Below are positions 46,733 through 63,168 of a stretch of 64,000 nt of DNA, one piece after another; the first letter of the stretch is position 1, and every line of letters begins with the position of its first letter. Made by a program: the position numbers and the translations under genes. Source of the stretch: an uncultured Gammaproteobacteria bacterium (GTDB taxonomy: Bacteria; Patescibacteriota; Microgenomatia; UBA8517); assembly GCA_964429215.1 (NCBI GenBank), contig CAYSAY010000001.1:118127-182126 (forward strand), written 5' to 3'. Under the pieces are notes generated by a model, which ran no database searches, was not told the origin of the DNA, and saw only the letters and a list, made by a program, of their open reading frames with translations.

Positions 46733-47382
46733 TTGCATTTGAAAATGTCACAAAAAACTTCGGATCTATCAATGCACTTGATAAAGTAACGTTTACAATT
46801 GAATCTGGTGAATTTGTCTTTTTGACTGGTCCCTCCGGCGCTGGTAAGACTACTATTTTAAAAATGATCCTTCGTGAGACACTTCCTGATACTGGTAGAG
46901 TACTTTTTGATAAAAATGACATTTCAGAAATAAAAAATAAAGATGTTCCTTATTTAAGGCAACAAATGGGGATTGTTTTTCAAGACTTTAAAGTACTTCC
47001 AGAAAGAACTGTTAAGGAAAATGTTGAAGTTGCCTTGGCAGTCGCTGATGTACCTGAAGAAGAATGGGGAAAGCGCGTAGGACATGTACTAAAACTAGTT
47101 GGCCTAAGTAGCCGTTCAAACCTTTTTCCATCACAACTTTCAGGAGGGGAACTTCAAAGAGTATCTCTTGCACGAGCATTGGTAATTAATCCCAAATTAA
47201 TTCTTGCAGATGAACCAACTGGTAATTTGGATTGGAAAACAGCTGAGGGAATAATGGAATTGTTTGAAAAAATAAATAAGGAAGGAAAAACAATAATTAT
47301 GGCTACTCATCATGAGGGAATAATTAAACATGGAAAGCATAGAGTGATAGAATTAATAGACGGAAAGGTTACAAAACAATGA
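46729..47382 (+). CDS. ftsE: Cell-division ABC ATPase FtsE
   Basis: Walker A GPSGAGKTT, LSGGELQRV, and Walker B LILADEPTGNLD. Confidence 0.9.
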   Translation: MIAFENVTKNFGSINALDKVTFTIESGEFVFLTGPSGAGKTTILKMILRETLPDTGRVLFDKNDISEIKNKDVPYLRQQMGIVFQDFKVLPERTVKENVEVALAVADVPEEEWGKRVGHVLKLVGLSSRSNLFPSQLSGGELQRVSLARALVINPKLILADEPTGNLDWKTAEGIMELFEKINKEGKTIIMATHHEGIIKHGKHRVIELIDGKVTKQ

Positions 47383-48296
47383 GTATTCATACAAGAACAG
47401 CACTTGATGCAATAAAAAGGTCACCGTTTCAAGCAGTGTCAGCTATTTTTGTTTTGTCCTTAACTTTTTTTGTAGCAACAACAGTTTCTATATTAGTTTT
47501 CAGTTCGAATGAACTCCTATCTTATTTTGAAACAAGACCTCAAATAATTTCTTTTTTAAAGAGCGAAGCTGATGCAAACGCGCTACAGGCATTTCAAAAC
47601 AAATTAGCAAGTGATAATAGGATAAAAGATATTAAATATGTTTCAAAGGAAGAAGCATTAGATATTTACAAAAAGGCAACAGAAGATAACCCACTTTTGG
47701 CAGAGCTTGTAAACCCGTCTATTTTTCCAGCTTCTCTTGAATTTTCAGTTAATGATATAAACCTTGCTGAAGTTGTTATAGATGAGGTTAAACAGGAGGC
47801 TGTTGTTGATCAAGTTGGATTTACTGCAAATATTGGAGGAGAGAAATCTTTGGGGGGTGTTGTTGAAAGACTTAAAAATATATCAAAATATGTGAGAATT
47901 GGTGGAGTAGTTTTTGTTGGTGCGTTAGCCATAACTTCATTTTTGGTCCTGCTCGTAATTATTAGTATGAGGCTAACTGCAAGAAAAGGTGAAATAGAAA
48001 TATTAAGTTTAATTGGAGCAACACCTGCTTTTGTAAGAAGCCCGATTGTAATTGAAGGAATCATATATGCAGTAGTTGGAGTTATTGTCGGTTGGATGTT
48101 GTCGTTAATAATGTGGTTGTATGTTTCCCCTAGTTTATTAACTTATTTTAATGGAATACCTGTAATTCCTAAGGATCCAGGAACTTTTTTCATATTATTC
48201 TTAAGTATTTTAGGAGCTGAATTATTAATTGGATTTACCATTGCTCTTACCGGAAGTTTGATAGCAGTTAAAAGATCACTTAAAAATGCAAAATGA
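47379..48296 (+). CDS. ftsX: Cell-division permease FtsX
   Basis: Four-TM topology with a large periplasmic loop. Overlaps ftsE by 4 nt. Confidence 0.85.
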   Translation: MSIHTRTALDAIKRSPFQAVSAIFVLSLTFFVATTVSILVFSSNELLSYFETRPQIISFLKSEADANALQAFQNKLASDNRIKDIKYVSKEEALDIYKKATEDNPLLAELVNPSIFPASLEFSVNDINLAEVVIDEVKQEAVVDQVGFTANIGGEKSLGGVVERLKNISKYVRIGGVVFVGALAITSFLVLLVIISMRLTARKGEIEILSLIGATPAFVRSPIVIEGIIYAVVGVIVGWMLSLIMWLYVSPSLLTYFNGIPVIPKDPGTFFILFLSILGAELLIGFTIALTGSLIAVKRSLKNAK

Positions 48297-49390
48297 AGTC
48301 AATAATTTTAGCAATTGTTGTTTCTTTAATACTGGTTTTTGCACTTCCTGTTAACGCCCAAGAATGTGGTGGAGATGTAAACCAAAGAATTCAATGCTAC
48401 GAGAGTAATATTATAAAACTTAAAGATTCAGGAAAGACATTATCTAATCAAATATTACAATTTGATTCTTCAATGAAACTTACAGAGTTAAAAATTGCTC
48501 AAACAGAAGAACAAGTTGGATTGTTAGTTGGAAGGATTGATCAGCTTGAAGGTTCTCTTGATTCGCTTTCAATTGCATTTTCAGAAAGGGTAGTTGAAAC
48601 CTATAAAATGGCAAGAGTTGGTGATCCATTTCTTTTGTTACTTTCCTCAGACAACTTAAATGAGGTTTTTAATAGATTTTCATATCTTAAGAAAATTCAG
48701 GATGGGGATAGAACATTACTTCAAAGACTTCAGAAAGCACAAGATACTTATAAAGAAGAAAAGGTAGATCAAGAAGAATTACAAAAAAAATTAGAAACAC
48801 AAAAATCACAATTAAATACTCAAAAATTAGCAAAGAAAGCGTTACTTGATCAAACGAAGAATGATGAAAAAAAGTATCAAACATTGTTAAATCAGGCACA
48901 AGCAGAAAAAGCTGCAATCGAAAAAGCTTTGGTCTCTGGTACTAAAGTAGGACCTGTTAAAGCTGGGGATCCGATTGCATTAGTAGGAAATTCTGGATAT
49001 CCAGGTTGTTCTACTGGAAAGCATCTTCATTTTGAAGTCAGAAAAAATAATACATGGGTTGATCCTGCGCCATATTTACAGAGTAAGTCAATTCAAGATG
49101 AAGAAAAAGGAGTGACTGCAAATATTGGTTCTGGTGGTTGGCAATGGCCACTGTCTGATACTATCAGAATGACACAGCATTTTGGTCATACTCCATGGTC
49201 TTGGAGATATTCATATTCAGGTGGAATTCATACTGGCTTTGATATGGTTTCAACAGGAAGTGACGTAATTAAAGCTCCAGCAGACGGAAATTTATTTAAG
49301 TCGTCTGAATCTTGTGGAAGTAGTAAAATAAATATAGTTTACATTGAACATGCAGACAATGTCATAAGTTTTTACTTACATGTCCAGTAG
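48293..49390 (+). CDS. M23 peptidase with N-terminal coiled coil (EnvC-like murein hydrolase/activator)
   Basis: Signal peptide, long coiled coil, and M23 motifs GNSGYPGCSTGKHLHFEV and HTGFD. Confidence 0.8.
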   Translation: MKSIILAIVVSLILVFALPVNAQECGGDVNQRIQCYESNIIKLKDSGKTLSNQILQFDSSMKLTELKIAQTEEQVGLLVGRIDQLEGSLDSLSIAFSERVVETYKMARVGDPFLLLLSSDNLNEVFNRFSYLKKIQDGDRTLLQRLQKAQDTYKEEKVDQEELQKKLETQKSQLNTQKLAKKALLDQTKNDEKKYQTLLNQAQAEKAAIEKALVSGTKVGPVKAGDPIALVGNSGYPGCSTGKHLHFEVRKNNTWVDPAPYLQSKSIQDEEKGVTANIGSGGWQWPLSDTIRMTQHFGHTPWSWRYSYSGGIHTGFDMVSTGSDVIKAPADGNLFKSSESCGSSKINIVYIEHADNVISFYLHVQ

Positions 49391-50231
49391 CATATTAATG
49401 CGATATAAAAAAAGAATATATATTGTACTAACATTATTATTTTTAATTCTTCCAAGGGGGGTTACTGCTTCAATCTTAATAAATGAGATATCTCCATCAA
49501 CTGATACTGAGTGGGTTGAATTATATAATGACAGTAGTTCTGAAGTTGATCTTTCAGGTTATTTACTAGAAGACGGAAATTCAAGCCGTAACGACGATAT
49601 CAACTTAAGTGGTATTATTTCAGGGAATGGATTTGTTGTTTTTACCCATGTTGAAGGTTGGTTAAATAATGGCGGAGATACAATAAAGCTTTACAATAAC
49701 GCGTCTCCATCGGCAATCATTGATCAATATACTTATGGTGGTGTTGATTCATCAAAAAGTATTGCAAGGATTCCAAATGGTAGTGAAAATTGGCAAACTA
49801 CAACAAACATAACAAATAATTCATCGAATCCATCGCCAACAACATCACCTACTCAAGATCCTACAAATACACCTACTGCAACACCTACGAAAACTGCAAC
49901 TCCAACTCCTATTGGGACACCAAAACCAACTCCAACAAAGACACCAACTGCAAAACCTACAACGACTTCAACACCTTCTGAAGAGCCTGAAGCGACAGAA
50001 AAACCAAGTATAAATTTAGAATTTGGTACAGGTAATGTAGTTGATGATCAAAGCACCCCTACTTCGATGGTAGCAGGTAGTTCAACAGAGAAAAAATCTC
50101 CTGTTTTGGCTATTATTTTTATATTTTCAGGAGTTTGTTTTCTTGGATATGGTGGCTATATGCTATATAATAAGAATCATCCGAATGATCAAAAACGCAG
50201 TTTACAGACAGAAAATATTCAAAATTCTTAA
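49380..50231 (+). CDS. Lamin-tail-domain (LTD) surface protein with Pro/Thr-rich linker and C-terminal TM
   Basis: ILINEISPSTDTEWVELYNDSSSEVDLSGYLLED is the LTD signature. A PT-rich segment follows, and the C-terminus is hydrophobic. Confidence 0.65.
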   Translation: MSSSILMRYKKRIYIVLTLLFLILPRGVTASILINEISPSTDTEWVELYNDSSSEVDLSGYLLEDGNSSRNDDINLSGIISGNGFVVFTHVEGWLNNGGDTIKLYNNASPSAIIDQYTYGGVDSSKSIARIPNGSENWQTTTNITNNSSNPSPTTSPTQDPTNTPTATPTKTATPTPIGTPKPTPTKTPTAKPTTTSTPSEEPEATEKPSINLEFGTGNVVDDQSTPTSMVAGSSTEKKSPVLAIIFIFSGVCFLGYGGYMLYNKNHPNDQKRSLQTENIQNS

Positions 50232-50631
50232 TTTTTGGTTACCTCCTATTCTTTGGGCAAGTGCTATATTTACTGTCTCTTCTTTTTCAGTTGGTAGTTC
50301 TAGTGAATTTTATTGGAAAGATTTTGTTATTAAAAAAACAGCACATATAATCGAGTATGGAATTCTTGCCACATTGGTTTACAGAGCCTTGGTGAATTAT
50401 GGAGTATTGAAAAGAAAGGCAATGATTTATGCTTGTTTAGTTGCACTTCTATATGGTGCCACTGACGAATTCCATCAGTCTTTTACTCCTGGACGAGGAC
50501 CTAAAGTAACTGATGTCGCAATTGATACTGCTGGGGCAAGTATTTTTATTTTTGGTATAATTGGAAGACTAAACAAAATGCCGGTATTTGTCCAAGATGT
50601 TTACAAAAAGTTAGAAATTATAACAGTTTAA
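50185..50631 (+). CDS. VanZ-like family membrane protein
   Basis: DEFHQSFTPGRGPKVTDVAIDTAGA VanZ motif. Start moved to an internal Met to limit overlap. Confidence 0.6.
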   Translation: MIKNAVYRQKIFKILNFWLPPILWASAIFTVSSFSVGSSSEFYWKDFVIKKTAHIIEYGILATLVYRALVNYGVLKRKAMIYACLVALLYGATDEFHQSFTPGRGPKVTDVAIDTAGASIFIFGIIGRLNKMPVFVQDVYKKLEIITV

Positions 50632-50640
50632 AATAAATAT

Positions 50641-51618
50641 ATGAAAATTTTGATTACAGGTGGAGCAGGTTACATTGGTAGTTTCATGGTTAGAAAATTG
50701 AAAGATGAAGGTCATGAAGTCATCATTCTTGATAATCTTTCAAATGGACATACTGAAGCTGTTAGCGAATTTCGATTAGAAAATATTGATCTTGTAACAG
50801 AAAAACAAAAGTTAGAAGCACTTTTTCAAGCTGAGAAATTTGATGCAGTTATTCATATGGCATCTTTTATTCAAATGGGAGAAAGTTTTAAAAATCCGTC
50901 TAAGTATTATATTAATAATGTGCTTGGATTTATTAATTTACTTGATGTGATGGTTATTAATAACTGCAAAAAATTAATAATCTCTTCTTCTGCAGGAGTT
51001 TATGGAAATCCAGTAAGACTCCCAATTAAAGAAGATGATCCAAAGAATCCACTTAACCCATATGGAGAAACAAAATATATGATTGAAAGAATCGCAGATG
51101 ATTATGATTTGGTTTATGATTTAAAATATATAACTTTTAGATATTTTAATGCTGCTGGAGCTGCACTTGATGGTTCAATTGGAGAAGCACATATAGAAGA
51201 AAGCCATTTGATACCAAATGTAATTGCAAAGATGGCTAAGAATGAGGAATTTGAACTTTTTGGAAGTGATTATGAAACTGCTGATGGTACATGTGTAAGA
51301 GATTATATTCACGTGTTAGACCTTGTTGATTCTCACGCTTTAGGATTAAAGGCATTAGAAGAAGGTGCTATGAGTAATAATTATAATATTGGTATCGGCA
51401 AGGGATATTCCAATATGGAAGTTATTAAAATGATTGAAGAAAAGTCAGGGATGAGAGTTAATATAAAATTTGGACCAAGAAGACAAGGGGATGCAAATGC
51501 ATTGTATGCATCAAATAAAAAGATATTTGATGAACTTGGTTGGACTCCTAAATATGATTTAGACATTATTGTCGAATCTGCTCTTAAGTGGCACAAATCA
51601 CATCCGGAAGGTTATTAA
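50641..51618 (+). CDS. galE: UDP-glucose 4-epimerase
   Basis: GGAGYIGS Rossmann motif, the YxxxK pair YGETK, and GalE-like length and C-terminus. Confidence 0.85.
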   Translation: MKILITGGAGYIGSFMVRKLKDEGHEVIILDNLSNGHTEAVSEFRLENIDLVTEKQKLEALFQAEKFDAVIHMASFIQMGESFKNPSKYYINNVLGFINLLDVMVINNCKKLIISSSAGVYGNPVRLPIKEDDPKNPLNPYGETKYMIERIADDYDLVYDLKYITFRYFNAAGAALDGSIGEAHIEESHLIPNVIAKMAKNEEFELFGSDYETADGTCVRDYIHVLDLVDSHALGLKALEEGAMSNNYNIGIGKGYSNMEVIKMIEEKSGMRVNIKFGPRRQGDANALYASNKKIFDELGWTPKYDLDIIVESALKWHKSHPEGY

Positions 51619-52256
51619 CAATCTTCTAATTTTTGAATATTCTCTATTATAAATTTTTTACCTTTGTGGAAAATTAATTTTTTAGTTCTCAACTTTTCTA
51701 TAGAAATGGAAGTTGTTTCTCTCGATATACCTGCAAAATTTGCAATGTCTTGATGGGTTAGGTCTATATCTATTTCTATATTGTTGTCGTCATTAATATG
51801 TCCGAATCTTTTTGCTAGCATTGCTATTATAATTGCAACTTTTTTAGTTGAATTTGATTTAATAACATTCTTAGTAGTATGAATTAGACCGTCTAGGCTG
51901 ATTAATAAGCGTGTTGCTAAATCCTTAAATATTTTTGGATTAGATTCCAAAAAAGCTACAACATCTTCTTTTGGTGCCCTATATACTACAATGTTTGACA
52001 TTGCTTTATAAAAATAAACGTTTTCTACTTCTGCAAGTGCCCAAGTCATTGGAAAAAATGATTCTGGTTTAAAGATATTAAATGCAATTTCTGTACCATT
52101 TTCATATATCGAGCTCATTTTGATGTATCCACTTTTTATAAAATATACACCATTGGGAGTGTCGTCTCCACGTATGACGATATCCCCTTTTGAATAGCAT
52201 ATTTTTCGATAGTTACTAAAAAAAGCCATTAGTTTGATTCTTAGATCGATGTTCAT
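51615..52256 (-). CDS. Crp/Fnr-family transcriptional regulator
   Basis: N-terminal cNMP-binding beta-roll and C-terminal HTH (QDIANFAGISRETTSISIEKL). Divergent from the glycosyltransferase operon. Confidence 0.75.
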   Translation of the reverse strand: MNIDLRIKLMAFFSNYRKICYSKGDIVIRGDDTPNGVYFIKSGYIKMSSIYENGTEIAFNIFKPESFFPMTWALAEVENVYFYKAMSNIVVYRAPKEDVVAFLESNPKIFKDLATRLLISLDGLIHTTKNVIKSNSTKKVAIIIAMLAKRFGHINDDNNIEIDIDLTHQDIANFAGISRETTSISIEKLRTKKLIFHKGKKFIIENIQKLEDC

Positions 52257-52372
52257 GTGAAAGTGTGAGAATTATAACAGACTTATAGTAAAAAATCTAA
52301 CTGAATAGATGTTTTGGTTCAATTACTATATACAAACGAATCTGCATTTATATGTGGATTCTTTTTTTAGAC

Positions 52373-53070
52373 ATGAAAAAGCTAGATATTATAATCCCAG
52401 TACTGAATGAGGCTGATAATCTTCAGCCGCTAGTTACGCAAATAGATAAAGTTTTAGGTGCAAAAAAAATCAGTTATAGGTTAATTATTGTTGATGATCA
52501 TTCCAGTGATGGAACTTCAGAATTGATAAAAAAGTTAAGTATTAAATATCCAATCATTTTTAAATTAAAGGAAGGAAGCAGGGGCAAGGCATATTCGATA
52601 TTGGAAGGAGTAAGTTTCGCAGAATCTGAATTTGTGGCGATGATTGATGGAGATTTACAATATTCACCATCTTATATTCCAGAGTTATATGAAAAGGCTG
52701 TATCAGAAAACCTTGGAGTGGTTGTTGCTAATCGGGTTAAACATAAAGAAGGAATGTTACGAAAGATTGGGTCAAAAGTAGTTAAATTTATAGCGTGTAG
52801 CTTAATGGGCCAAAGTGTTGATTTTCAATCAGGGCTTAAAATATTTAAGCGGGAAGTTGTTAATCATTTAGATAAATCAAATATTAAGCCTTGGGCTTTT
52901 GATATACCTCTTATTCACACTGCTTTGGAGTTAGGAGAAAAGATTGGAACAGTTGATATAACCTTTGAACCGCGACTACATGGTAAATCAAAGTTTAACT
53001 TTATGACAAGTTTAGTAGGTGTAACTGAAGTAATGGTCGGGCTTTTAAAATTAAAACTTAAACCTACTAG
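52373..53070 (+). other. Domain 1: GT2, polyprenol-phosphate hexosyltransferase-like (DPM1/GtrB/ArnC type)
   Basis: IIIPVLNEADNL...IIVDDHSSDGT...DGD. Confidence 0.7.
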
Positions 53071-56000
53071 AGTATTTCATTTAAAGCCAACAGAAAATTT
53101 AACAATGAAGGGGGCGGGAATTGTGTATAAAAGAAATAAATTTTTAACTCATACAACGCTTAATCATAACAATTCTGCAATAGTAACTTTTACCCGTGGG
53201 CAGATTTCAGTTATTTTTATGATTTTATCTGCTTTTGGGGTTGGGCTTATATTATCAACCCAAACTACATTAATAGTTTTTGTGGCAATTCTATCTTTTG
53301 TTTATTTTGCAGATGTGTTTTTTAATCTTTATTTAGTTTTAAAAAGTCTTCATTTTCCACCTGAATTAATGTTTGAAGATAATGATTTGGTAAATATCAA
53401 AGAAAGTTCGTTGCCTTTATATACAATTTTGTGTCCACTTTATCACGAATCCGGAATTTTACCTCAATTTGTAGATTCAATTAATAAAATGGATTATCCA
53501 AAAAATAAGCTTGAAGTATTACTTCTCTTGGAAGAAGATGATACAAAGACAATCGAAAGTGCTAGAAGTTTAAAATTACAAAAGCATTTTAAAATAATTG
53601 TTGTTCCTCATTCACTACCAAAAACTAAACCCAAAGCTTGTAACTATGGATTGGCACATGCCAAAGGTGAATTTGTAGTTATATATGATGCAGAGGATAT
53701 TCCAGATCCATTTCAGCTTAAAAAAGCAGTTTTAGGATTTAATAAGTTAGGTAAAAGTTATTCTTGTCTCCAAGCAAAACTTAACTATCATAATCCAAAT
53801 CAGAATTTACTCACAAGACTTTTTACATCTGAATATAGTTTATGGTTTGACATTATGCTGCCTGCGTTACAAACAATTAATACAACAATACCATTAGGTG
53901 GAACAAGCAATCATTTTAGAAGAGAAGACCTTAACAAATTTGAAGGATGGGATCCATTTAATGTTACTGAAGATGCTGATCTTGGAATTAGACTTTTTAA
54001 AGCTGGTGGAAAAACTGCAATTATAGATTCCGTAACTTTAGAAGAAGCAAATAGTAATTTAAAAAATTGGATAAGACAAAGGTCAAGGTGGATTAAGGGT
54101 TATATGCAAACATACTTTGTGCATATGAGAAACCCTTGGCAGTTTGCTAAGGATCATGGAAGACATTGGTTAGTTTTTCAACTTGTTTCAGGGCTTCGTA
54201 TTTCTTTTATGTTAATTAATCCAATTTTATGGGGGTTAACATTTTCTTATTTTTTACTATATAAATTTGTAGGACCACAAATTGAAAGTTTGTATCCATC
54301 TGCAGTTTTTTATATGGCTATAACGTCAGCTGTATTTGGAAACTTTTTGTATATCTACTACTACATGATAGGAACTGCAAAGCATGGACAATATCAATTA
54401 ATTAAATATGTATTTTTAATTCCTATTTATTGGGTATTTACTAGTATTGCAGCAACTGTTGCTTTTTGGCAGTTACTCGTAAAACCTCATTATTGGGAGA
54501 AAACAATTCATGGATTAACTAAAGAAGAGAAAAAGAAAATATTATTCAAGTTTGAGTTTGCAGGTCTTAAAGAGTTTGGATTTAGTAGTTTTAATAAGAT
54601 TAAAAGTTTTTCAAAAAGTTCGTTAGCTAGTGGTGCATTCTTAATATTTGCTTCAATGTTTGCAAATGTAATGAACTTTTTGTATAACGCCTATTTAGGG
54701 AGAAAGTTAGATTTAGATGATTTTGGATTAATAAGTTTAGTTGGAAGTTTTATCTTTTTGTCACAAGTACCACTTTCTGCACTTTCGAGAACTGTTACAC
54801 ACAGAAGTGCCTTTTTGTTTGGTAGGTATGGTACTGCAGTCACAAATTTTTGGAAAAATACTCGATCAAAGTCGGTAAAAATATCATTTTTGTTTACAGC
54901 TGTTTGGATTTTACTTACACCTTATTTAATGAATCTATTTAAAACAGATCAATTTTTGCCATTTTTGATATTTGCACCAACATGGATAATTGGATTTGCT
55001 GAAGCTGTTGATGGAGGGTTTATAAAAGGTAATCTAAACTTTTATGTTTCAGGAGTCACGGTGATTACTGAAGCTGTTACTAAGCTTCTGCTGGCAATTT
55101 TAATAGTAACATTAGGTTTTGATCATTGGGTTTATTTGTCAATTCCACTTTCTATGTTTTCGGCCTTCCTGATAAGTTGGCATTTTGCTAGAAAAATTAA
55201 ACAGAATGTTGAAGTAGAAATTGAAGTTGAAAATTATTTTCCAAGAGCATTTTATTCAACATCAATTTTGACTAAAATATCATCAATTGCGTTTCTAAGT
55301 TTGGATTTAATTCTTGCTAAAATTTATTTAAGTCCAACGGACGCGGGTCTTTATTCATTACTTTCTTTAGCTGGGAAAATGGTTTATATGTTTGGAACAC
55401 AGTTTTCTCAATTCATATTGCCAATAGTAAGTAAGAATGAAGGAGAGGGCAGAGATTCTTTGAAGTCATTTTACAAACTTTTTTTGATGACCACTGTAAT
55501 TAGTTTGTTAGGTTTTTTGGTTATCGGAATTTTTGGATATGTAACAGTTCCATTATTATTTGGAAATAGGGTGCTACCAATTGTTACATATCTACCTTAT
55601 TTTGCTTTTGCAATGGCAATACAAGTTTTGTCACAGGCAATTGTAAACTATTATCAATCAAAAAATAATCAAATATTTCCTGTTGTTAATTTTGTAGTCT
55701 CATTCTTTACTATTTTTAGTGTCATATTTATACATAATAGTATCACTTCAATTGTAAACATTATGTTTATATCTTCCCTGGTCAGTTTTACAGTAATGCT
55801 TGTTATGCATATATTTGTAAAGCAAATCAATATATTAAAAAGCAATTTATTAGATTTGTCAGGGGTATTTAAAAAGTTGCCTTTAACTAATATAAATGTG
55901 GATTCTAATTTAAATATATTAATATTTAACTGGAGAGATACAAAACATGTATGGGCTGGAGGAGCTGAAGTTTATGTACATGAAATTGCGAAGAGGTGGG

Positions 56001-57070
56001 TAAAAGCTGGTCACTTAGTTACTGTATTTTGTGGAAATGACAGAAAATCTCCAAGGAATGAAGTAATCGATGGTGTGCAAATGGTTAGGAGAGGTGGATT
56101 TTATACTGTGTATTTTTGGGCGTTTCTTTATTATATATTAAGATTTCGAGGTAAGTATGATGTTGTCATTGATAATGAAAATGGTATACCATTTTTTGCC
56201 CCCCTTTATGTAAAGGAACCAGTAATTGGACTTGTTCATCATGTTCATCAAGAAGTGATATTAAAGAAATTAAAATTGCCGAAGTATCTTATTCCAGTAG
56301 GTTTGATTGCAGTGTTTATTGAACGATATTTAATGCCAATAATATATAAAAATACTCAAATGATTACTGTGTCAGAATCATCAAAAATTGATATGGAGAA
56401 AATTGGTCTGGGTAAAATTAAGCCAATATTGATTGTAAATCCAGGAGTTGATCTGTCTTTGGTTAAACGATTTAAGAAAACAACCGCACCAAGCCTTCTT
56501 TTTGTAGGAAGAATAAAGGCATATAAATCAATAGATACTTTGATAAAAGTAGTATTTGTAATCAAAAATGATATTCCAAATATAAAATTAAATATTGCGG
56601 GATATGGAGAAGAACAAAAAAACTTAGAAGTTTTAGTTGCTAAGTTGGGTATTCAGGATAATGTAAATTTTTTGGGTAAAATTTCAGATTTAGAGAAATA
56701 TGAATTAATGTCTAAATCTTGGGTATTTGTTTATCCGTCTACATTTGAAGGTTGGGGCATTTCTGCAATAGAAGCGAATGCCTCTGGTACTCCCGTAGTT
56801 GCTTCAGATGTGGCAGGACTGCGTGATTCAGTAAATGATGGTGTCTCGGGTATGTTAGTTGAAGCAAAGAATGTAGATCAATTTACATCAAAAATATCGG
56901 AAATAATTAATAATAAAAAATTAAGAAACAGTCTCTCTAGAGGTGGCATAAAATGGGCAAGTAATTTTGATTGGTCTAATAGTTCCCACTTATTTATTGC
57001 CTATATCTATAATTATTTGAACGCAAGTAAAAATTATAAATTATCAAATTCAGATTACGATTTAACATGA
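52373..57070 (+). CDS. Giant multidomain glycan-synthesis protein: GT2 (DPM1/GtrB-like), processive GT2 (QxxRW) with TM bundle, Wzx/MOP-flippase-like 12-TM domain, and GT4
   Basis: Single uninterrupted 1565-aa ORF (1572 aa from the track start). Domain-defining motifs are listed in the four domain features that follow. Confidence 0.8.
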   Translation: MKKLDIIIPVLNEADNLQPLVTQIDKVLGAKKISYRLIIVDDHSSDGTSELIKKLSIKYPIIFKLKEGSRGKAYSILEGVSFAESEFVAMIDGDLQYSPSYIPELYEKAVSENLGVVVANRVKHKEGMLRKIGSKVVKFIACSLMGQSVDFQSGLKIFKREVVNHLDKSNIKPWAFDIPLIHTALELGEKIGTVDITFEPRLHGKSKFNFMTSLVGVTEVMVGLLKLKLKPTRVFHLKPTENLTMKGAGIVYKRNKFLTHTTLNHNNSAIVTFTRGQISVIFMILSAFGVGLILSTQTTLIVFVAILSFVYFADVFFNLYLVLKSLHFPPELMFEDNDLVNIKESSLPLYTILCPLYHESGILPQFVDSINKMDYPKNKLEVLLLLEEDDTKTIESARSLKLQKHFKIIVVPHSLPKTKPKACNYGLAHAKGEFVVIYDAEDIPDPFQLKKAVLGFNKLGKSYSCLQAKLNYHNPNQNLLTRLFTSEYSLWFDIMLPALQTINTTIPLGGTSNHFRREDLNKFEGWDPFNVTEDADLGIRLFKAGGKTAIIDSVTLEEANSNLKNWIRQRSRWIKGYMQTYFVHMRNPWQFAKDHGRHWLVFQLVSGLRISFMLINPILWGLTFSYFLLYKFVGPQIESLYPSAVFYMAITSAVFGNFLYIYYYMIGTAKHGQYQLIKYVFLIPIYWVFTSIAATVAFWQLLVKPHYWEKTIHGLTKEEKKKILFKFEFAGLKEFGFSSFNKIKSFSKSSLASGAFLIFASMFANVMNFLYNAYLGRKLDLDDFGLISLVGSFIFLSQVPLSALSRTVTHRSAFLFGRYGTAVTNFWKNTRSKSVKISFLFTAVWILLTPYLMNLFKTDQFLPFLIFAPTWIIGFAEAVDGGFIKGNLNFYVSGVTVITEAVTKLLLAILIVTLGFDHWVYLSIPLSMFSAFLISWHFARKIKQNVEVEIEVENYFPRAFYSTSILTKISSIAFLSLDLILAKIYLSPTDAGLYSLLSLAGKMVYMFGTQFSQFILPIVSKNEGEGRDSLKSFYKLFLMTTVISLLGFLVIGIFGYVTVPLLFGNRVLPIVTYLPYFAFAMAIQVLSQAIVNYYQSKNNQIFPVVNFVVSFFTIFSVIFIHNSITSIVNIMFISSLVSFTVMLVMHIFVKQINILKSNLLDLSGVFKKLPLTNINVDSNLNILIFNWRDTKHVWAGGAEVYVHEIAKRWVKAGHLVTVFCGNDRKSPRNEVIDGVQMVRRGGFYTVYFWAFLYYILRFRGKYDVVIDNENGIPFFAPLYVKEPVIGLVHHVHQEVILKKLKLPKYLIPVGLIAVFIERYLMPIIYKNTQMITVSESSKIDMEKIGLGKIKPILIVNPGVDLSLVKRFKKTTAPSLLFVGRIKAYKSIDTLIKVVFVIKNDIPNIKLNIAGYGEEQKNLEVLVAKLGIQDNVNFLGKISDLEKYELMSKSWVFVYPSTFEGWGISAIEANASGTPVVASDVAGLRDSVNDGVSGMLVEAKNVDQFTSKISEIINNKKLRNSLSRGGIKWASNFDWSNSSHLFIAYIYNYLNASKNYKLSNSDYDLT
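53400..54500 (+). other. Domain 2: processive GT2 (cellulose/hyaluronan/NodC/PgaC-like) with C-terminal TM helices
   Basis: YDAED, TED and QRSRW, flanked by hydrophobic helices on both sides. Confidence 0.7.
54600..55830 (+). other. Domain 3: MOP-superfamily (Wzx/polysaccharide-transporter-like) multi-TM domain
   Basis: SLASGAFLIFASMFANVMNFLYNAYLGRKLDLDDFGLISLVGSFIFL resembles the Wzx/PST N-terminal signature. About 12 hydrophobic helices. Confidence 0.55.
55905..57067 (+). other. Domain 4: GT4 (group-1 glycosyltransferase)
   Basis: LLFVGR, and EGWGISAIEANASGTPVVASDVAGLRDSV (the E-x7-E GT4 motif). Confidence 0.75.
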
Positions 57071-57855
57071 GAAAATACAAATTAATTAAATTATTATCAA
57101 AAAATCAAAAATATACTATTGGACTCTATTCAGATCGAGATGGTAATAAATTTGTCATAAAATCTATTGCAGGAGATGGTAGTATTATTACTCGTAAATT
57201 ATTGCTAAATGAATTTACAATGGTAAATATTTTGTCTCAAAAATATAATAAAATATTACATTTTCCAAAAGTAAAAGAATTTATTAAGAATGATAAATCT
57301 ATGTATATTGTGTATGAATATATTAAAGGCAAAGTATTAACTAAACATGACAATAATTACCAGTTAAAAGTTATTAATAAATTGCTTTTGGAGTTGAAAA
57401 GTATGACCAATTTATTAAACGATGAAGATAGAAAAAAAATTAAAATACATAATAAACTATTTTATATGTCTTCTTTACCTATATTATATTTTTTTGCAAT
57501 TCTAAATAATTACAAACATATAAATATTATTACTTTAGCATTTAAAAAATGTATATTTTCTTTTAAAGAACTTGTTAAAAGTCCGTTGACTTTAACACAT
57601 CGTGATATTAAACCAGATAACATAATTATTAAAAACAAAGAAATATATTTATTAGATTGCGAACAAATGGTCTTAACTTATAGCGAGTACGATATAAACA
57701 AAATCTATTTAGATCACAATGGAATGCATATTAATTCTCACACATTAAACGTAGTTTTAATGAATTACATTTGTTTAAGTTATTGTTCATCTTTTGGAAA
57801 GAGAAGTTTATATTCGAATAAATATATCAAAATGTTGTACAAAATAAATAATTAA
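57067..57855 (+). CDS. Protein-kinase-like fold small kinase (APH/LPS-kinase/Kdo-kinase-like), putative sugar kinase
   Basis: Catalytic-loop-like LTHRDIKPDNIII and the DFG-equivalent LLDCEQ. Extremely AT-rich. ATGA overlap with the upstream gene. Confidence 0.5.
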   Translation: MRKYKLIKLLSKNQKYTIGLYSDRDGNKFVIKSIAGDGSIITRKLLLNEFTMVNILSQKYNKILHFPKVKEFIKNDKSMYIVYEYIKGKVLTKHDNNYQLKVINKLLLELKSMTNLLNDEDRKKIKIHNKLFYMSSLPILYFFAILNNYKHINIITLAFKKCIFSFKELVKSPLTLTHRDIKPDNIIIKNKEIYLLDCEQMVLTYSEYDINKIYLDHNGMHINSHTLNVVLMNYICLSYCSSFGKRSLYSNKYIKMLYKINN

Positions 57856-57856
57856 T

Positions 57857-59071
57857 ATGAAATTATTAATAGCACCATTACATTACGTTGCGGATAAGTA
57901 TGAAGGTAGCGAATATACACGGGCTTATGACTATCTAGAATATTTATCTAGACAAAAAGATATCAATGGTGATGTGCTAGTTGGATATTGCAGTGAAAAG
58001 AAGATGGGCAACTTAAAAATAATATCTATGTTTAAGAGAAAGCCAACTTATATTTCTAACATTATCAGATTACAGTTTGTTGTTTGGATCTTCATCAAGT
58101 GGCTACTGTTGAAACTTAGAAATAACTATGATGTTATTTGGCACAATGGTCCGTTTTCTCTAAATGAGACGTTTTCACTTGTAGCAATTTTAAATAAATC
58201 CACGCCATTTATAATTGGGCCAATAGTTACGCCACATCAATATGTGAGCGAAGACGAGTCTCGTTCAATGGGTAAGAAAATATTTAAAAGAAACTTGTTG
58301 CAAATCGTTTTAAAAAAGATTGATCACTTGACATATCCATTGTCGAAAGTTTTTAGGTATTTGTCATATCTAACGTTAAGGAAAAGTAAGCTAGTTTTGG
58401 TGAAAGAAACTGATTGTTTAAAGTTAATAAATAAATATGATTTTAGAAATATAATAGTACATAATATGGGATTAAATTTAAAAGAATTTGGTTTCAATCA
58501 TGCTAAATATATCAATGCTAATGTTGTAAATATTATTACAGTTAGTTATTTAGTGAAGCGGAAAGGTGTAACAGACCTTGTTGATATTATGAATTATTTG
58601 ATTAAATCTAGAAAAAGAACAAATTATCGATTAAAAATAGTTGGTAGTGGGCCTGAATTTGATAATATAAAAAGAAAAATAAAAGAGTTGAATTTAAGTA
58701 AGTATATAAAACTTGTTGGATTTGTCACTAAGAAATTAATACATAAATACTATGAGAATTCTGACTTATTTGTTACCACAACATTGTCAGACTCAATGCC
58801 TGCCATGTACTTTGAGGCTATGGCATCTGGGTTACTGGTCATTAGTTACGATAACCCAAGTGTTAGAGAGCTTAAATTAAAAGGAGCTAAGATAGTAACC
58901 TCAGAAGTTGGTAATATATCAAATTATGCTAAATGTATTATGGATAATACAAAAGATAGTAATAAATTAATGGCATTAGGTAAGGCAAATTATAAATTAT
59001 CTAAAGAAGAATTTAGTTTTGAGAAAAAAATGGAGATGTTTACAAGTTATTTAGAAAAGTTAAAAAAATGA
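57857..59071 (+). CDS. GT4-family glycosyltransferase
   Basis: C-terminal FVTTTLSDSMPAMYFEAMASGLLVISYD (the E-x7-E motif) and the Rossmann-like ITVSYLVKRKG. Confidence 0.7.
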   Translation: MKLLIAPLHYVADKYEGSEYTRAYDYLEYLSRQKDINGDVLVGYCSEKKMGNLKIISMFKRKPTYISNIIRLQFVVWIFIKWLLLKLRNNYDVIWHNGPFSLNETFSLVAILNKSTPFIIGPIVTPHQYVSEDESRSMGKKIFKRNLLQIVLKKIDHLTYPLSKVFRYLSYLTLRKSKLVLVKETDCLKLINKYDFRNIIVHNMGLNLKEFGFNHAKYINANVVNIITVSYLVKRKGVTDLVDIMNYLIKSRKRTNYRLKIVGSGPEFDNIKRKIKELNLSKYIKLVGFVTKKLIHKYYENSDLFVTTTLSDSMPAMYFEAMASGLLVISYDNPSVRELKLKGAKIVTSEVGNISNYAKCIMDNTKDSNKLMALGKANYKLSKEEFSFEKKMEMFTSYLEKLKK

Positions 59072-60582
59072 AATACAACATTTTAAGTAAATTAGGAAAC
59101 GTAATAATATTATTTTTTGTTATTATTGTGGTAACTATAACAATCAAGGGTTCAAGTGATATTAAATATTATCAAAATAATATTGATACGAGAATGTTTG
59201 GACCATTTGAGACTTCAAATAATTCATCAAGATTTGCTTTAACGGAAGCTATTGTTAAAAATAAAAGCCTGTTTTTATCTGATGAATTAGCTTCTGTTGC
59301 TTCGCCAGATCTTACAAAAATTAATGGTAAATTTATAACAATATTTACTCCGGGTATTTCTTTTATGGGACTTCCATTTTACTACTTAGGTTATAAATTT
59401 GGTTATCCACAAATTAGCACTTATTTGTTAAGTTCTTTTATTTCAATTATCAATATATATTTGATAGCAAACATATTGCTAAAACTTAAAATGAATAAAT
59501 GGATAAGTATATTCTGTGGATTAATATATTTATTTGCCACAAATTCGTTATCATATTCAAATTCATTTAATCAGCATCAAGTAAGTACGTTTTTGTTGTT
59601 ACTTTCAATTCTGTTGTCAATAAAACCGATTACTTATCTAAATAATTTGATATTTGGAATTATTTATGGGATTGCCATATTGGTTGACATACCAAATGCG
59701 CTTTTACTACTCCCGATATTAACATACCAAGCATGTAGAAATGTAAGAGTAATTCCTGAAAAGAAAATATATTCTTTAAAAATAAATACATCAATATTGC
59801 TTATTGTTATGGGCTTATTACCTTCAATGTTTCTTTTTGGGTGGTATAACCGTAGTGTTACGGGAGATTATTTAAAATTAGGACAAGTTTATGGTAGATA
59901 TATCTATACCAATACTAGGATAGAGGATGTTGTTGAAATATCAAAAAAGAAAGACAAAAGTGAATTTAAACAATTTGATTCAAGACGATTATTAAGTGGC
60001 CTTACCGTATTGTTATTTAGTCGCGACCGAGGAATAGTTGTGTATTCTCCAATATTTATATTCGGTATTGTGGGTATGATAATTGCTAGTAAAAGAAAAA
60101 ACAATTATTTAAATATTATTTTACTATCTACTGTGATTATGAATTTAATTGTCTACTCGTTGTTTAATGATCCTTGGGGAGGTTGGGCTTTTGGTCCGAG
60201 GTACTTGATACCGTCGAATGCAATTTTGTCATTACTAATTGCATTTACTATAAATAAATATTATAAGAATTTACTGTTTATTTCTATCTTAGGGATAGTA
60301 CTTATATATTCGGTATCAATAAATGTATTAGGAGCATTGACAACACAATTAGTTCCTTCAAGTGTACAACTTCCTTTTTTAACAGGAAAGGTATCTGACA
60401 CTTTTCTTTATAATTATTCATTTTTGAAATCTAACATGAGTAGCTCGTTGTTTTACAATTTGTTATTGGCTGATCATATTAATTTTGCTAATTTTGTAGC
60501 AATTGTGGTTATTGCAATGATTATATTTTTTGGGGTGATATATTTATTAATTTTAAAAGATAAAAACAAATCCCATGAATGA
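59068..60582 (+). CDS. GT-C fold membrane glycosyltransferase (PMT/ArnT-like, GT39/GT83-type)
   Basis: At least 10 TM helices. The first extracytoplasmic loop carries an acidic motif (RFALTEAIVKNKSLF) in the position of the GT-C DE/DD motif. Confidence 0.55.
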   Translation: MKYNILSKLGNVIILFFVIIVVTITIKGSSDIKYYQNNIDTRMFGPFETSNNSSRFALTEAIVKNKSLFLSDELASVASPDLTKINGKFITIFTPGISFMGLPFYYLGYKFGYPQISTYLLSSFISIINIYLIANILLKLKMNKWISIFCGLIYLFATNSLSYSNSFNQHQVSTFLLLLSILLSIKPITYLNNLIFGIIYGIAILVDIPNALLLLPILTYQACRNVRVIPEKKIYSLKINTSILLIVMGLLPSMFLFGWYNRSVTGDYLKLGQVYGRYIYTNTRIEDVVEISKKKDKSEFKQFDSRRLLSGLTVLLFSRDRGIVVYSPIFIFGIVGMIIASKRKNNYLNIILLSTVIMNLIVYSLFNDPWGGWAFGPRYLIPSNAILSLLIAFTINKYYKNLLFISILGIVLIYSVSINVLGALTTQLVPSSVQLPFLTGKVSDTFLYNYSFLKSNMSSSLFYNLLLADHINFANFVAIVVIAMIIFFGVIYLLILKDKNKSHE

Positions 60583-62191
60583 AATTAATTTAAAGATAAG
60601 CAAAAAATTTGTAGAAAAAGCAAAAAGTTTTTTTGATTTGTATAATTTATCTATAATTGTTATTTTGCTTGTTTTGGTGTCAATCAGTTTTTTTTATTTT
60701 TACCTAAATAATAAATTAGGACTCTCCTATAACGATGCTAGATCACACTTAGATATTGGTAGAAGAGTTGTTGAAAGTCTAAAGCCTGGAATTGCACAGC
60801 TTGGATCTGTTTGGTTACCGTTAAACCACGTGTTAATGATTCCTTTGATTTGGAATGATTGGGCATGGCACTCTGGTTTTGCTGGTGCGGTTTGGAACAT
60901 GATTTCATTTGTTGGTACAGGAGTATTGATTTATAAAATTTTAGAGATTTTTAATGTCAAATTAATTGGGAAGTTGTTTGGTGTCTTGGTTTTTGCAGCG
61001 AACCTGAATGTTTTGTATTTGCAGTCTACTGCGATGACTGAACCGCTTCTTTTGGCTACCATGACTGCTGGTTGTTACTACTTACTACTTTGGGCGAAGG
61101 ACGAAAGAGTAATTAATTTAGTTAAATCTTCGTTTTGGGTTATGATGGCAACACTTGTACGATACGATGGATGGTTTTTGCTATTGTTTTCTGTAGCTGT
61201 TGTTGCAATCTTAATGTTTGTTAAGCGAGGATACCGTGTATCTGAAGGACTGGTTGTGATGTTTGCGACGATGGGTGGGTTTGGTATATTTTTATGGTTT
61301 GTCTGGAATTGGGTTATATTTTCAGACCCTCTTTACTTTATACTTGGACCTTTTTCTGCTCATGCACAGCAGTTGGTAATGGAGGAAGCAGGTGCATTAC
61401 CAACAAAATATAACTTGTTATTATCCACTCAAGTTTATTTGTATTCCGTATTTTATAATTCTATAACTACAACTGCATTACTTGGTTTTTTTGGGGGGGT
61501 AATAATGTTGTTTGATAAGAAAATAAAACCTGAACTTAGGTTTGCGAGTATTGCTTTGATGTCACCTTTATTTTTTAATATTGCATCTTTATTCTTTGGA
61601 TTTTCTGTTATTTTTATTCAAGGGATTTCTGGAGATACTTGGTTTAATGTTCGATATGGAGTTATGTTAATGCCAACCTTTGCTGTATTTATTGGATACT
61701 TGATTAACAGATTCTCAAATTTGAAATGGGTAATTATTGGAACATTTTTATTTGTAACGTTTTTTGCCTTTGCAAATAATGATTCTGTGGCAATGGACGA
61801 TGCTCGCGTTGGATCTTCACAAAAAAATGTTGCTGAAGTATCTGGTTGGTTGGAAAAAAATACAAAGGACAAAAAAGGTTTTATATTAATTTCTGCTGCT
61901 TCTCATGATGCTATTATATTTTCTAGCAATCTTCCTATGAAGAAGTTTATACATGAAGGAACAGGTAAGTATTGGGAATCTGCAACTACAACACCTGATA
62001 GATGGGCAAGATGGATAGTTCTTAGAACCTATGATAAGAATGATTTATCTTATCAAGCTGTTGGAGATTTAACTAGTTTTAAGACAATGTATAATTTAGT
62101 TGATTCCTATCCATTTGCTGACATTTATGAATTAAAAGAAGAATATTTAAATAATTTAAATACGGAAGCAAATCTTGGAAAGCAAAAGTAA
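60575..62191 (+). CDS. GT-C fold membrane glycosyltransferase (PMT/ArnT-like), second paralog with C-terminal soluble domain
   Basis: Multi-TM protein. The loop motif SYNDARSHLDIGRRV lies in the first external loop. C-terminal soluble domain of about 130 aa. Confidence 0.55.
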   Translation: MNEINLKISKKFVEKAKSFFDLYNLSIIVILLVLVSISFFYFYLNNKLGLSYNDARSHLDIGRRVVESLKPGIAQLGSVWLPLNHVLMIPLIWNDWAWHSGFAGAVWNMISFVGTGVLIYKILEIFNVKLIGKLFGVLVFAANLNVLYLQSTAMTEPLLLATMTAGCYYLLLWAKDERVINLVKSSFWVMMATLVRYDGWFLLLFSVAVVAILMFVKRGYRVSEGLVVMFATMGGFGIFLWFVWNWVIFSDPLYFILGPFSAHAQQLVMEEAGALPTKYNLLLSTQVYLYSVFYNSITTTALLGFFGGVIMLFDKKIKPELRFASIALMSPLFFNIASLFFGFSVIFIQGISGDTWFNVRYGVMLMPTFAVFIGYLINRFSNLKWVIIGTFLFVTFFAFANNDSVAMDDARVGSSQKNVAEVSGWLEKNTKDKKGFILISAASHDAIIFSSNLPMKKFIHEGTGKYWESATTTPDRWARWIVLRTYDKNDLSYQAVGDLTSFKTMYNLVDSYPFADIYELKEEYLNNLNTEANLGKQK

Positions 62192-62196
62192 CTAAT

Positions 62197-63168
62197 ATGA
62201 AATTAAAAATTATAATAGTTTTATTAATAATATCTATCTCTGCTTTTGCATATATTAAATTGTCAAAATCAGAAAAAATTATAATTCCTGAAAAAAGATG
62301 GAAAGTAACTTCCATTGATACTGTTAAATATTCAAGAGATTTGGCAAGAGAAAAAGAAAATAATGAAGAATTTTTAAACACAATTGATAAACAAGTTAAG
62401 GTAATTGCAGAAACAGGTGCTACTCATATATCAATTGGAACTCCGTATGATGAAGAATTTATTCCATTTCTAACAAAGTGGGTAAAGTCGGCACGTACGT
62501 ATGGATTAAAAGTATGGTTTAGAGGAAATTTTTCAGGGTGGGAAAAATGGTTTGGGTATCCAAGAATAGATAGAGATGAACATAAAAAATTAGTTGCAGA
62601 ATTTATTAATAAAAATGGTGAATTATTTGAAGACGGTGACATATTTACTAGTTGTCCTGAATGCGAAAATGGTGGTCCTGGAGATCCACGTCAGAATAGT
62701 GATCTAGAAGGTCATAGACGATTTTTAATTGATGAATATGCAATAACAAAAAATGAATTTAGATCAGTTGGCAAGAATGTAACTACTAATTATTTCCCAA
62801 TGAACGGTGATGTAGCAAGGCTTGTAATGGATATGGAAACAACAAGAAATTTAGGTGGAATTGTGACCGTAGATCATTATGTACGTGATCCTGAAAAATT
62901 AAATAATGATTTGACAGAACTTGCCTTGTTATCTGGTGGGAAAATAGTACTTGGTGAATTTGGTGCACCAATTCCTGATATACATGGTCAAATGACAGAG
63001 GGTGAACAATCTGATTGGGTGGGTAAAACAATGGAATTGTTAAGTGGTAATAGTAATGTTATTGGTATTAATTATTGGACGAATAAAGGAGGATCAACTG
63101 AAATATGGAATAAAGATTATTCCCCAAAAAAGACAGTTGAAGTACTAACAAGATATTTTAAAATGTAA
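62197..63168 (+). CDS. Putative clan GH-A (TIM-barrel) glycoside hydrolase, signal-anchored
   Basis: N-terminal TM. Candidate acid/base ...CENGGPGDP and nucleophile ...IVLGEFGAP, which resemble the GH5/GH113 NEP and TEFG positions. This is a weak call. Confidence 0.35.
   Translation: MKLKIIIVLLIISISAFAYIKLSKSEKIIIPEKRWKVTSIDTVKYSRDLAREKENNEEFLNTIDKQVKVIAETGATHISIGTPYDEEFIPFLTKWVKSARTYGLKVWFRGNFSGWEKWFGYPRIDRDEHKKLVAEFINKNGELFEDGDIFTSCPECENGGPGDPRQNSDLEGHRRFLIDEYAITKNEFRSVGKNVTTNYFPMNGDVARLVMDMETTRNLGGIVTVDHYVRDPEKLNNDLTELALLSGGKIVLGEFGAPIPDIHGQMTEGEQSDWVGKTMELLSGNSNVIGINYWTNKGGSTEIWNKDYSPKKTVEVLTRYFKM

Follow-up and report, generated by a model that had tools for sequence, protein, structure and literature searches.

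A conserved four-module glycosyltransferase and flippase fusion of CPR bacteria as the probable hub of an envelope-glycan gene cluster

When enzymes of polysaccharide synthesis and export are found joined in one polypeptide, the question arises of whether they serve one pathway or several. This question is raised by a gene in a 64,000-nucleotide stretch of DNA (contig CAYSAY010000001.1 of assembly GCA_964429215.1, positions 118,127 to 182,126 of the forward strand; hereafter the window) from a bacterium of the candidate phyla radiation (CPR, Patescibacteria). A first-pass annotation had read the gene as a fusion of four modules, namely a polyprenyl-phosphate glycosyltransferase of family GT2 (module i), a processive GT2 synthase (module ii), a flippase-like membrane domain of the multidrug/oligosaccharidyl-lipid/polysaccharide (MOP) superfamily (module iii) and a retaining glycosyltransferase of family GT4 (module iv), and had taken it for a self-contained machine. 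In the present study, we found that the four-module fusion is a genuine and conserved multi-enzyme membrane protein of CPR bacteria. We also consider it reasonably probable that this protein is the hub of a conserved envelope-glycan cluster serving two coupled routes.

The expected reading frame of about 1570 amino acids was recovered as a single open reading frame without internal stops, 1572 amino acids long when counted from the first ATG. At a G+C content of about 31%, a random frame meets a stop about every 13 codons, and the natural logarithm of the probability of a stop-free run of 1572 codons is about -128. The motifs quoted for the modules were all present, each once and at its expected place: LNEADNL at residues 18-24, DDHSSDGT at 48-55, DGD at 99-101, YDAED at 445-449, TED at 539-541, QRSRW at 576-580, the N-terminal string of the MOP domain at 759-800 and the GT4 string at 1466-1494. 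A protein search returned at least 120 full-length homologues with 48-70% identity, from many samples and assemblers; their lengths were 1513-1600 amino acids, plus one of 1818, and those with a name in the databases are entered as 'glycosyltransferase' of Microgenomates, Woesebacteria, Gottesmanbacteria, Beckwithbacteria or the Patescibacteria group. Furthermore, two contigs bear an identical fusion protein, and more distant full fusions (39-47% identity) occur in metagenome-assembled genomes (MAGs) labelled Saccharibacteria and Parcubacteria. The concern that separate genes had been merged by mis-assembly or by masked frameshifts can thus be set aside as having a negligible probability, because the homologues are uninterrupted in independent assemblies, and no evidence in favour of such an artefact was found.

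The homologue consensus (MxxLDIIVPVxNE, 120 homologues) begins at Met8, at position 52373 (MKKLDIIIPV), so that the true start is probably this codon, giving a protein of 1565 amino acids. Ahead of the two candidate starts, 52352 and 52373, there is no obvious Shine-Dalgarno-like purine run. The 95-nucleotide intergenic region between the fused gene and the divergent Crp-type gene is very A+T-rich.

The four assignments and their N-to-C order were upheld by Pfam, NCBIfam, PDB sequence matches and AlphaFold2 (AF2) models searched with Foldseek. In module i, PF00535 (Glycos_transf_2) matched residues 13-140, and the NCBIfam ArnC model aligned to residues 7-228 with a score under its equivalog cut-off. 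The seven best PDB sequence matches were all polyprenyl-phosphate glycosyltransferases (4.5e-18 to 1.6e-12), with the Pyrococcus Dol-P-Man synthase 5mlz at the top (4.5e-18), followed by ArnC and GtrB. In the structural search, ArnC 9bhe was superposed with a root-mean-square deviation of 2.3 A over 230 columns, and ArnC, DPMS and GtrB entries ranged from 2.3 to 3.2 A. In the homologue alignment D49, D99-x-D101, R128 and K163 are invariant and R208 nearly so; the DxD metal site, together with this specific similarity, places the module among the polyprenyl-phosphate glycosyltransferases, and it is predicted to make a polyprenyl-phosphate-sugar. A helix at residues 217-236 precedes the transmembrane pair 282-334 in the AF2 model. 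This pair is placed like the C-terminal transmembrane pair of GtrB-type enzymes and also like the N-terminal pair of PgaC-type synthases, and for this reason it is probably common to modules i and ii, by analogy with both layouts.

The catalytic domain of module ii is the most conserved stretch of the whole protein. PF13641 and PF13632 matched residues 357-635, and the NCBIfam PgaC_IcaA model aligned over nearly its full length (residues 315-711 against model positions 3-393 of 407, E = 4.2e-27). Its score of 95 bits against an equivalog cut-off of 422 led us to reject orthology with PgaC. The PDB sequence match was BcsA 7lby (7.5e-11), and a GT21 match (PF13506) was marginal at 23.4 bits. In 120 sequences D446, E448, D449, E540, D541 and Q576-R-S-R-W580 are invariant, which gives the D,D,D,QxxRW signature of processive synthases. 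The AF2 model of region 570-710 has helices at 604-643, 650-677 and 681-710 plus interface helices, and Foldseek aligned about 449 columns, membrane part included, to the Chlorella virus hyaluronan synthase 9yq5 and to BcsA 5ej1. The earlier reading of a QxxRW GT2 with its own membrane helices is thus sustained, and module ii is predicted to carry out processive polymerisation and translocation. The QxxRW motif is also present in non-polymerising lipid glycosyltransferases.

Module ii resembles PgaC/IcaA, BcsA, class I hyaluronan synthase (HAS) and NodC in its D,D,(T)ED,QxxRW set, its two N-terminal and several C-terminal helices and its interface helices, and the cluster encodes a glycoside hydrolase, comparable to BcsZ in cellulose systems. 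In contrast to those systems, a PilZ or other cyclic di-GMP (c-di-GMP) module and PgaD-, BcsB- or PgaB-like genes were not detected here, the constant partner is a GT-C-like protein, and the synthase lies within a four-module polypeptide. Two short strings outside the catalytic motifs are strictly conserved, LINPILW (residues 621-627, nucleotides 54212-54232), with N623, P624 and W627 invariant within a 40-residue helix, and KPHYWEKTIHG (residues 711-721, nucleotides 54482-54514), just past the last membrane helix. Module ii was also found alone, with its membrane helices. The identity of these copies is 38-54% for MAGs labelled Moranbacteria, Chloroflexia, Bathyarchaeota, Rickettsiales and Hyphomicrobiales, and 35-54% for a set with Gammaproteobacteria but not Moranbacteria (for example L017:9446-11314 and L012:9782-11488, among the related loci L010-L029), a spread that is unusually wide for such high identity. 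The genes next to these stand-alone copies in the Rickettsiales, Hyphomicrobiales, Chloroflexia, Moranbacteria and Bathyarchaeota loci were housekeeping or unrelated genes, and a clue to the product was not found among them; at the alphaproteobacterial loci the neighbours were unrelated genes.

A lysine-rich and variable segment links modules ii and iii, with low column conservation, frequent gaps and a mean of 7.3 lysines and arginines across 120 homologues. For module iii, the PF01943 (Polysacc_synt) alignment of our own sequence spans the whole profile (3-271 of 274) with E = 0.034-0.04 and 13.8-14 bits against a cut-off of 28.2. Seven out of 19 diverse homologues of the segment matched PF01943, the best at E = 6.6e-11, and several full-length homologues have a precomputed match, so that membership is assigned by transitive homology and not by the curated threshold. 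No NCBIfam match was found for the segment alone, and a 19-sequence MOP profile found nothing among PDB sequences. Structure prediction used a 47-sequence alignment. Since a Foldseek search with the large model (residues 1-1190) had GT2 matches only among the top 50 listed, we made a model of the MOP segment alone, which reached a pLDDT (predicted local distance difference test) of 90.3 and a pTM (predicted TM-score) of 0.88. It has 12 transmembrane helices plus short extra ones, arranged as two six-helix bundles with both termini inside, as in the MOP superfamily. All of the 50 PDB matches listed for this model were MATE, MurJ or WzxE entries, aligned along some 420-450 columns; except for the inward-facing WzxE entries, the TM-scores lay at roughly 0.6-0.77, and WzxE 9g9m (0.72/0.77) was among the highest target-normalised scores. 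The proposed Wzx-like domain of about 12 helices was therefore borne out by homologue matches and by fold. Candidates for substrate binding, all in helices, are the invariant D985 and the almost invariant R784, K911 and K990. By analogy with its structural relatives, the domain is a putative flippase of a lipid-linked glycan.

In module iv, PF13439 matched at 1203-1369 (57 bits) and PF00534 at 1374-1535 (150 bits), the EX7E motif (E1466-x7-E1474, from nucleotide 56747) is invariant, and the PDB sequence matches were MshA, TarM, PimA and BshA, in agreement with the earlier assignment to GT4. Each of the four modules is of a known kind at the family or superfamily level, and not an orthologue of a characterised enzyme. 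Loop charges alternate, with a central loop rich in lysine and arginine, and the topology is coherent with the positive-inside rule; all three catalytic domains are accordingly modelled on the cytoplasmic side. With regard to whether the two helix bundles form one channel, we rejected a single shared channel: they are linked by a disordered segment of about 25 residues, 721-745 in the model, which gives no confident packing between them (pTM 0.59). The model points to two separate membrane modules.

Which modules belong together in function was judged from the forms in which they occur elsewhere, by local BLAST of open reading frames in 28 related loci and by a MOP profile search. Every junction of the fusion is open in some lineage among these loci. 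In L006 module i is separate and ii, iii and iv are fused; in L008 modules i and ii are fused and a GT-C-like gene follows; in L021 there are eight separate genes in the order synthase, MOP, GT2, GT4, GT2, GT-C, GT-C and glycoside hydrolase (GH). Across phyla the most constant neighbour of module ii is the family of the 538-residue GT-C-like protein encoded in the window, a homologue of which directly follows the synthase in L008, L010, L011 and L012 (loci of Moranbacteria, Chloroflexia and other MAGs). In addition, members of this family are joined to the hydrolase family of the cluster as a protein of about 885 residues (L005:19733-22384 and L010:13043-15703), which makes a second Rosetta-stone link within the cluster.

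A search of 1.84 billion representative proteins with the MOP profile gave 5246 relatives, of which 487 had E <= 1e-30, and architectures were counted in the best 150 representatives. About 45 were full-length stand-alone MOP proteins of 400-500 residues (shorter fragments being left out), 39-40 joined MOP to GT4, 12 joined it to a soluble GT2 of about 320 residues (among P0146-P0239, for example P0149 with 737 residues) and 5-7 to a kinase-like domain (for example P0138, P0142 and P0154). Modules ii, iii and iv together were present in 11-12 and all four in 8-10, and P0112 (1818 residues) is a five-module form with a kinase-like domain at residues 1587-1748. This MOP subfamily seems, from these counts, to be habitually tethered to a cytoplasmic enzyme. 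Evolution thus ties the flippase to cytoplasmic GT4, GT2 or kinase-like enzymes; for the synthase, the ties are with a GT-C-like protein and with a hydrolase. The linear order that had been read from the fusion (charging, polymerising, flipping, elongating) does not agree with these statistics, which pair the MOP domain with GT4 and module ii with the GT-C-like protein. That the flippase is tied to GT4 and not to module i, and module ii to the GT-C-like protein, argues for a hub of two coupled routes.

The neighbouring genes, whose coordinates are collected in Table 1, supply further parts of such a system, and the downstream ones overlap or abut the fusion gene. The product of the first of these is a phosphotransferase of the APH and protein-kinase kind, whose homologues match APH at about 5e-9. 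The copy in the window diverges more than any other member of its family (27-30% identity to its homologues), and the G+C content over its gene (57000-57999) is 0.20-0.25, against 0.28-0.34 in the flanking genes. The second GT4 has sub-cut-off NCBIfam matches to EpsE, BshA and an alpha-monoglucosyl-diacylglycerol synthase model. The 504-residue membrane protein, the gene of which is kept in L003, L005 and L009, is probably a glycosyltransferase of GT-C fold, judging by family matches; its L009 homologue matches PMT_2 at 4.5e-5, below the Pfam cut-off. The 538-residue protein is probably a GT-C enzyme of the PMT_2/ArnT-like kind, as half of 10 family members match PF13231 PMT_2 (best 1.7e-5, sub-cut-off) and two match PMT; its family profile gave no meaningful match among PDB sequences. 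The secreted protein of 323 residues is probably a glycoside hydrolase of clan GH-A (GH5/GH113-like). Its family has two invariant glutamates, E157 (ECENGG) and E254 (GEFG). PF00150 Cellulase (GH5) is matched at 1.1e-16 by homologues that are fused to the GT-C-like protein, one homologue matches Glyco_hydro_cc, and the family profile has weak PDB matches to the beta-1,4-mannanase 5ylh (4.8e-4) and to GH5 endoglucanases. Upstream, GalE, which lies near the fusion gene also in L003 and L004, likely supplies sugar-nucleotide donors and suggests donors of the Glc/Gal type, and the divergent Crp/FNR-type protein is, by its position only, a candidate regulator of the cluster. The term 'self-contained' is therefore not supported. 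Besides the fusion, the cluster has genes for a kinase-like protein, another GT4, a pair of GT-C-like proteins and a GH-A hydrolase; several of these partners accompany the modules in different phyla and, in other lineages, form fusions with them.

Table 1. Features of the fused gene and of its neighbours (positions in the window; amino acids counted from the first ATG of the fused gene)
Feature	Position	Strand	Basis or remark
UDP-glucose 4-epimerase GalE	50641..51618	+	NCBIfam TIGR01179, 389.6 bits against a cut-off of 262.3
Crp/FNR-type regulator (cyclic-nucleotide-binding domain and helix-turn-helix), divergent, just upstream of the fused gene	51615..52256	-	PF00027 and PF13545
Whole fused gene	52352..57070	+	Single open reading frame
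Module i, GtrB/ArnC/DPMS-like GT-A domain (aa 8-236)	52373..53059	+	Pfam, NCBIfam, PDB, Foldseek
Two transmembrane helices (aa 282-301, 303-334)	53195..53353	+	Hydrophobicity scan; AF2 pLDDT about 90
Module ii, catalytic GT-A domain (aa 335-602)	53354..54157	+	Pfam, NCBIfam, BcsA match, invariant motifs
Module ii, motif YDAED	53684-53698	+	
Module ii, motif TED	53966-53974	+	
Module ii, motif QRSRW	54077-54091	+	On an interface helix
Module ii, C-terminal membrane helices (aa 603-722)	54158..54517	+	AF2, Foldseek, loop charges
Lysine-rich, variable, disordered linker, predicted cytoplasmic (aa 723-745)	54518..54586	+	pLDDT about 40
Module iii, 12-helix MOP domain of polysaccharide transport (PST)/Wzx type, N-in/C-in (aa 746-1172)	54587..55867	+	AF2, Foldseek, PF01943 in homologues
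Module iv, GT4 retaining GT-B domain (aa 1190-1572)	55919..57067	+	Pfam, PDB matches, EX7E
APH/protein-kinase-like phosphotransferase (262 aa)	57067..57855	+	Weak Pkinase/APH Pfam matches; start overlaps the stop of the fused gene
Second, separate GT4 (404 aa)	57857..59071	+	PF00534 at 1.6e-23
Multi-pass membrane protein, probably GT-C (504 aa)	59068..60582	+	NCBIfam LA_3751/LA_3752 putative glycosyltransferase, E = 1.5e-13, sub-cut-off
Multi-pass membrane protein with extracytoplasmic C-terminal domain, probably GT-C (538 aa)	60575..62191	+	PMT_2 matches in the family
Secreted protein, probably GH-A hydrolase (323 aa)	62197..63168	+	GH matches of homologues, family profile, invariant glutamates

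The modules are identified by the matches described above; the flow of sugars between them we infer as follows. On one route, module ii would use a nucleotide sugar to polymerise a beta-linked backbone, which it would extrude through its own helix bundle, and the secreted GH-A hydrolase would trim or release the polymer, comparable to BcsZ and CcsZ for cellulose. On the other, the GT4 module, the separate GT4 and the kinase-like enzyme would build or modify a lipid-linked glycan at the cytoplasmic face, and the adjoining Wzx-type MOP domain would flip it. Module i, being of GtrB/DPMS type, would make a polyprenyl-phosphate-sugar for this second route, and this lipid-sugar, once outside, would be the donor for the two GT-C-like enzymes, which would add decorations or extensions either to the extruded polymer or to the flipped glycan. 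The fusion would thereby hold the stoichiometry and the proximity of the steps in very small cells. A bolder form of this proposal, which we regard as rather unlikely but worth stating, is that the fusion physically couples synthase-dependent extrusion with Wzx/GT-C lipid-linked glycosylation, so that the emerging polymer is decorated or extended with sugars supplied in cis by module i and the MOP flippase, and that the product is a principal wall glycopolymer of many CPR bacteria.

Several points weigh against the two-route hub. What the MOP domain transports is ambiguous and could be a polyprenyl-phosphate-monosaccharide, a lipid-linked oligosaccharide or a polymer, and no product, donor or acceptor is assigned. 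The MOP segment of our own protein lies under the Pfam threshold, and the GT-C assignments of the 504- and 538-residue proteins are sub-threshold or transitive, with no significant Pfam match of the proteins themselves. The polypeptide may be cleaved after translation into separate proteins. The model of residues 1-1190 has a mean pLDDT of 85, and its pTM of 0.59, with the disordered linker, leaves the inter-domain packing without a confident prediction; that the two routes are physically coupled is therefore something that we infer. Within module ii, the number of true passes in residues 604-710 is affected by helix 681-710, which sits between two positively charged loops and may be membrane-associated instead of spanning. 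Finally, a conserved priming phosphoglycosyl transferase was not found among the neighbours in an all-against-all comparison of the CPR loci, which leaves the GT4 route without a defined lipid acceptor.

Against these points, other arrangements of the same four modules have to be weighed. One is the linear machine of the earlier reading, in which module i charges a carrier, ii polymerises, iii exports and iv elongates one and the same polysaccharide without help from further proteins. One polypeptide with a fixed order and invariant catalytic motifs throughout, conserved across CPR lineages, would suit such a machine. However, export can go either through the channel of a GT2 synthase or by way of a MOP flippase, so that the two would be redundant for one polymer, module ii occurs on its own in many Alphaproteobacteria, and the partners (two GT-C-like proteins, GH, kinase-like protein and second GT4) co-occur and are fused to the modules elsewhere. 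Polyprenyl-phosphate-monosaccharides are also not known to act as primers of QxxRW synthases. Such lipids serve outside-facing GT-C enzymes as donors (PMC8035078), and of the readings that accept the fusion as real we give this one the least credence. The Gram-positive systems of that review consist of a GT-A enzyme that makes the C55-P-sugar (GtrB, CsbB or GacI), a flippase (GtcA of GtrA type or the Wzx-type GacK) and a GT-C enzyme (YfhO or GacL), and in the group A carbohydrate system the combination of GT-A, Wzx-type flippase and GT-C is GacI/GacK/GacL (PMC8035078). Module i, the Wzx-type MOP domain and the two GT-C-like proteins encoded just downstream are alike to these three parts. Here, in contrast, the GT-A enzyme and the flippase are fused, a processive synthase and a GT4 are added, and the fusion statistics pair the flippase with GT4 and not with the GtrB-like module. 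A marginally better, though still improbable, alternative divides the protein into two independent synthases, with MOP and GT4 making and exporting an alpha-polymer like PelG and PelF, module ii making a beta-polymer and module i only supplying sugars for decoration. PelG is MOP-like, a cytoplasmic GT4 with a multi-pass membrane protein is the core of Pel as it is of the directly fused pair here, and MOP with GT4 is the commonest fused form among the best 150 representatives. In the Pel model the GT4 enzyme PelF works with the membrane protein PelG and polymerises, and PelG is among the proposed exporters (PMC7112168). The MOP domain, however, matches PF01943 of the Wzx/PST type, and a PelG-family Pfam match was not found for this region or its homologues. 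The PelF model was not among the 25 best NCBIfam matches of the fusion, PelD-, PelE- or PelA-like genes were not detected in the cluster, and there was no sign of c-di-GMP control; membership in the Pel family of systems was rejected on the lack of a PelG-family match and of such neighbours. Moreover, the same MOP subfamily is fused to soluble GT2 and kinase-like domains, and partners so varied are more easily reconciled with the flipping of lipid-linked intermediates than with a protein devoted to polymer export.

To about the same low degree we credit a lipoglycan pathway, in which the GT4 (PimA/Alg-like) glycosylates a membrane lipid on the side of the cytoplasm, the MOP domain (Rft1/Wzx-like) flips it, module i (Ppm1/DPM1-like) gives polyprenyl-phosphate-hexose, the GT-C enzymes extend the chain outside, and module ii makes a glycolipid or a lipid-primed chain instead of a free polymer. 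This is the logic of the eukaryotic endoplasmic reticulum, with its Alg GT4 enzymes, Rft1, DPM1 and luminal GT-C enzymes, and of mycobacterial phosphatidylinositol mannoside and lipomannan synthesis, with PimA, Ppm1 and GT-C mannosyltransferases. Both have a cytoplasmic GT4, a DPM1-type synthase and GT-C enzymes acting outside, with a MOP-type flippase as a further point of likeness; unlike the fusion, their components are separate and come without a QxxRW synthase, and the homology is at superfamily level only. Several matches would fit, among them Dol-P-Man synthase as the best PDB sequence match of module i, PimA among those of the GT4 module, the sub-cut-off glycolipid-synthase match of the second GT4, the PMT_2-type look of the membrane partners, the weak beta-1,4-mannanase match as the best catalytic-domain match of the hydrolase profile, the marginal GT21 match of module ii and the cluster's want of a priming phosphoglycosyl transferase. 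Against this, the similarities of the GT4, the hydrolase and the GT-C-like proteins are weak or generic, GalE suggests Glc/Gal-type donors and not mannose, and module ii matches the full-length PgaC model as well as BcsA and HAS with their membrane helices, which favours a translocating polymer synthase. We thus retain the two-route hub as the preferred reading.

With respect to novelty, the architecture had been called undescribed. No paper describing the four-module protein was found in the literature searchable here, which omits most subscription-journal papers, and to this extent the statement stands; in public databases the protein is common, annotated only as 'glycosyltransferase', a name that conceals a protein of four functions. 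It appears to be a Rosetta-stone fusion that is undescribed in the literature but common, and that unites components of two normally separate polysaccharide pathways. The fused and split forms together link a GtrB-type synthase, a QxxRW synthase, a Wzx-type flippase, GT4, kinase-like and GT-C-like enzymes. The CPR is a large and mostly uncultured share of bacterial diversity whose envelope chemistry is essentially unknown, and the cluster is a candidate for the synthesis of a major surface glycan. Furthermore, the handover of substrate from glycosyltransferase to Wzx is hard to study with separate proteins; here the flippase is covalently tied to its presumed partners, and a flippase-enzyme fusion in a single polypeptide is an attractive target for cryo-electron microscopy and reconstitution. 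A precedent for such a union is MprF, a cytoplasmic lipid-modifying synthase fused to the flippase of its own product (bioRxiv 10.1101/2022.03.11.483950). Its folds and chemistry are unrelated to those of the present protein, as it makes aminoacyl-phosphatidylglycerol and not glycans.

Two groups of genes on the same strand lie further upstream in the window. Directly before GalE, five successive genes in the region 46729-50631 encode an FtsE-like ABC ATPase, an FtsX-like permease, an M23 peptidase, a Lamin-Tail-Domain protein and VanZ. A tRNA-guanine transglycosylase gene (42899-43939) lies between genes for two proteins with a LytR_C domain (42192-42890 and 43957-44640).

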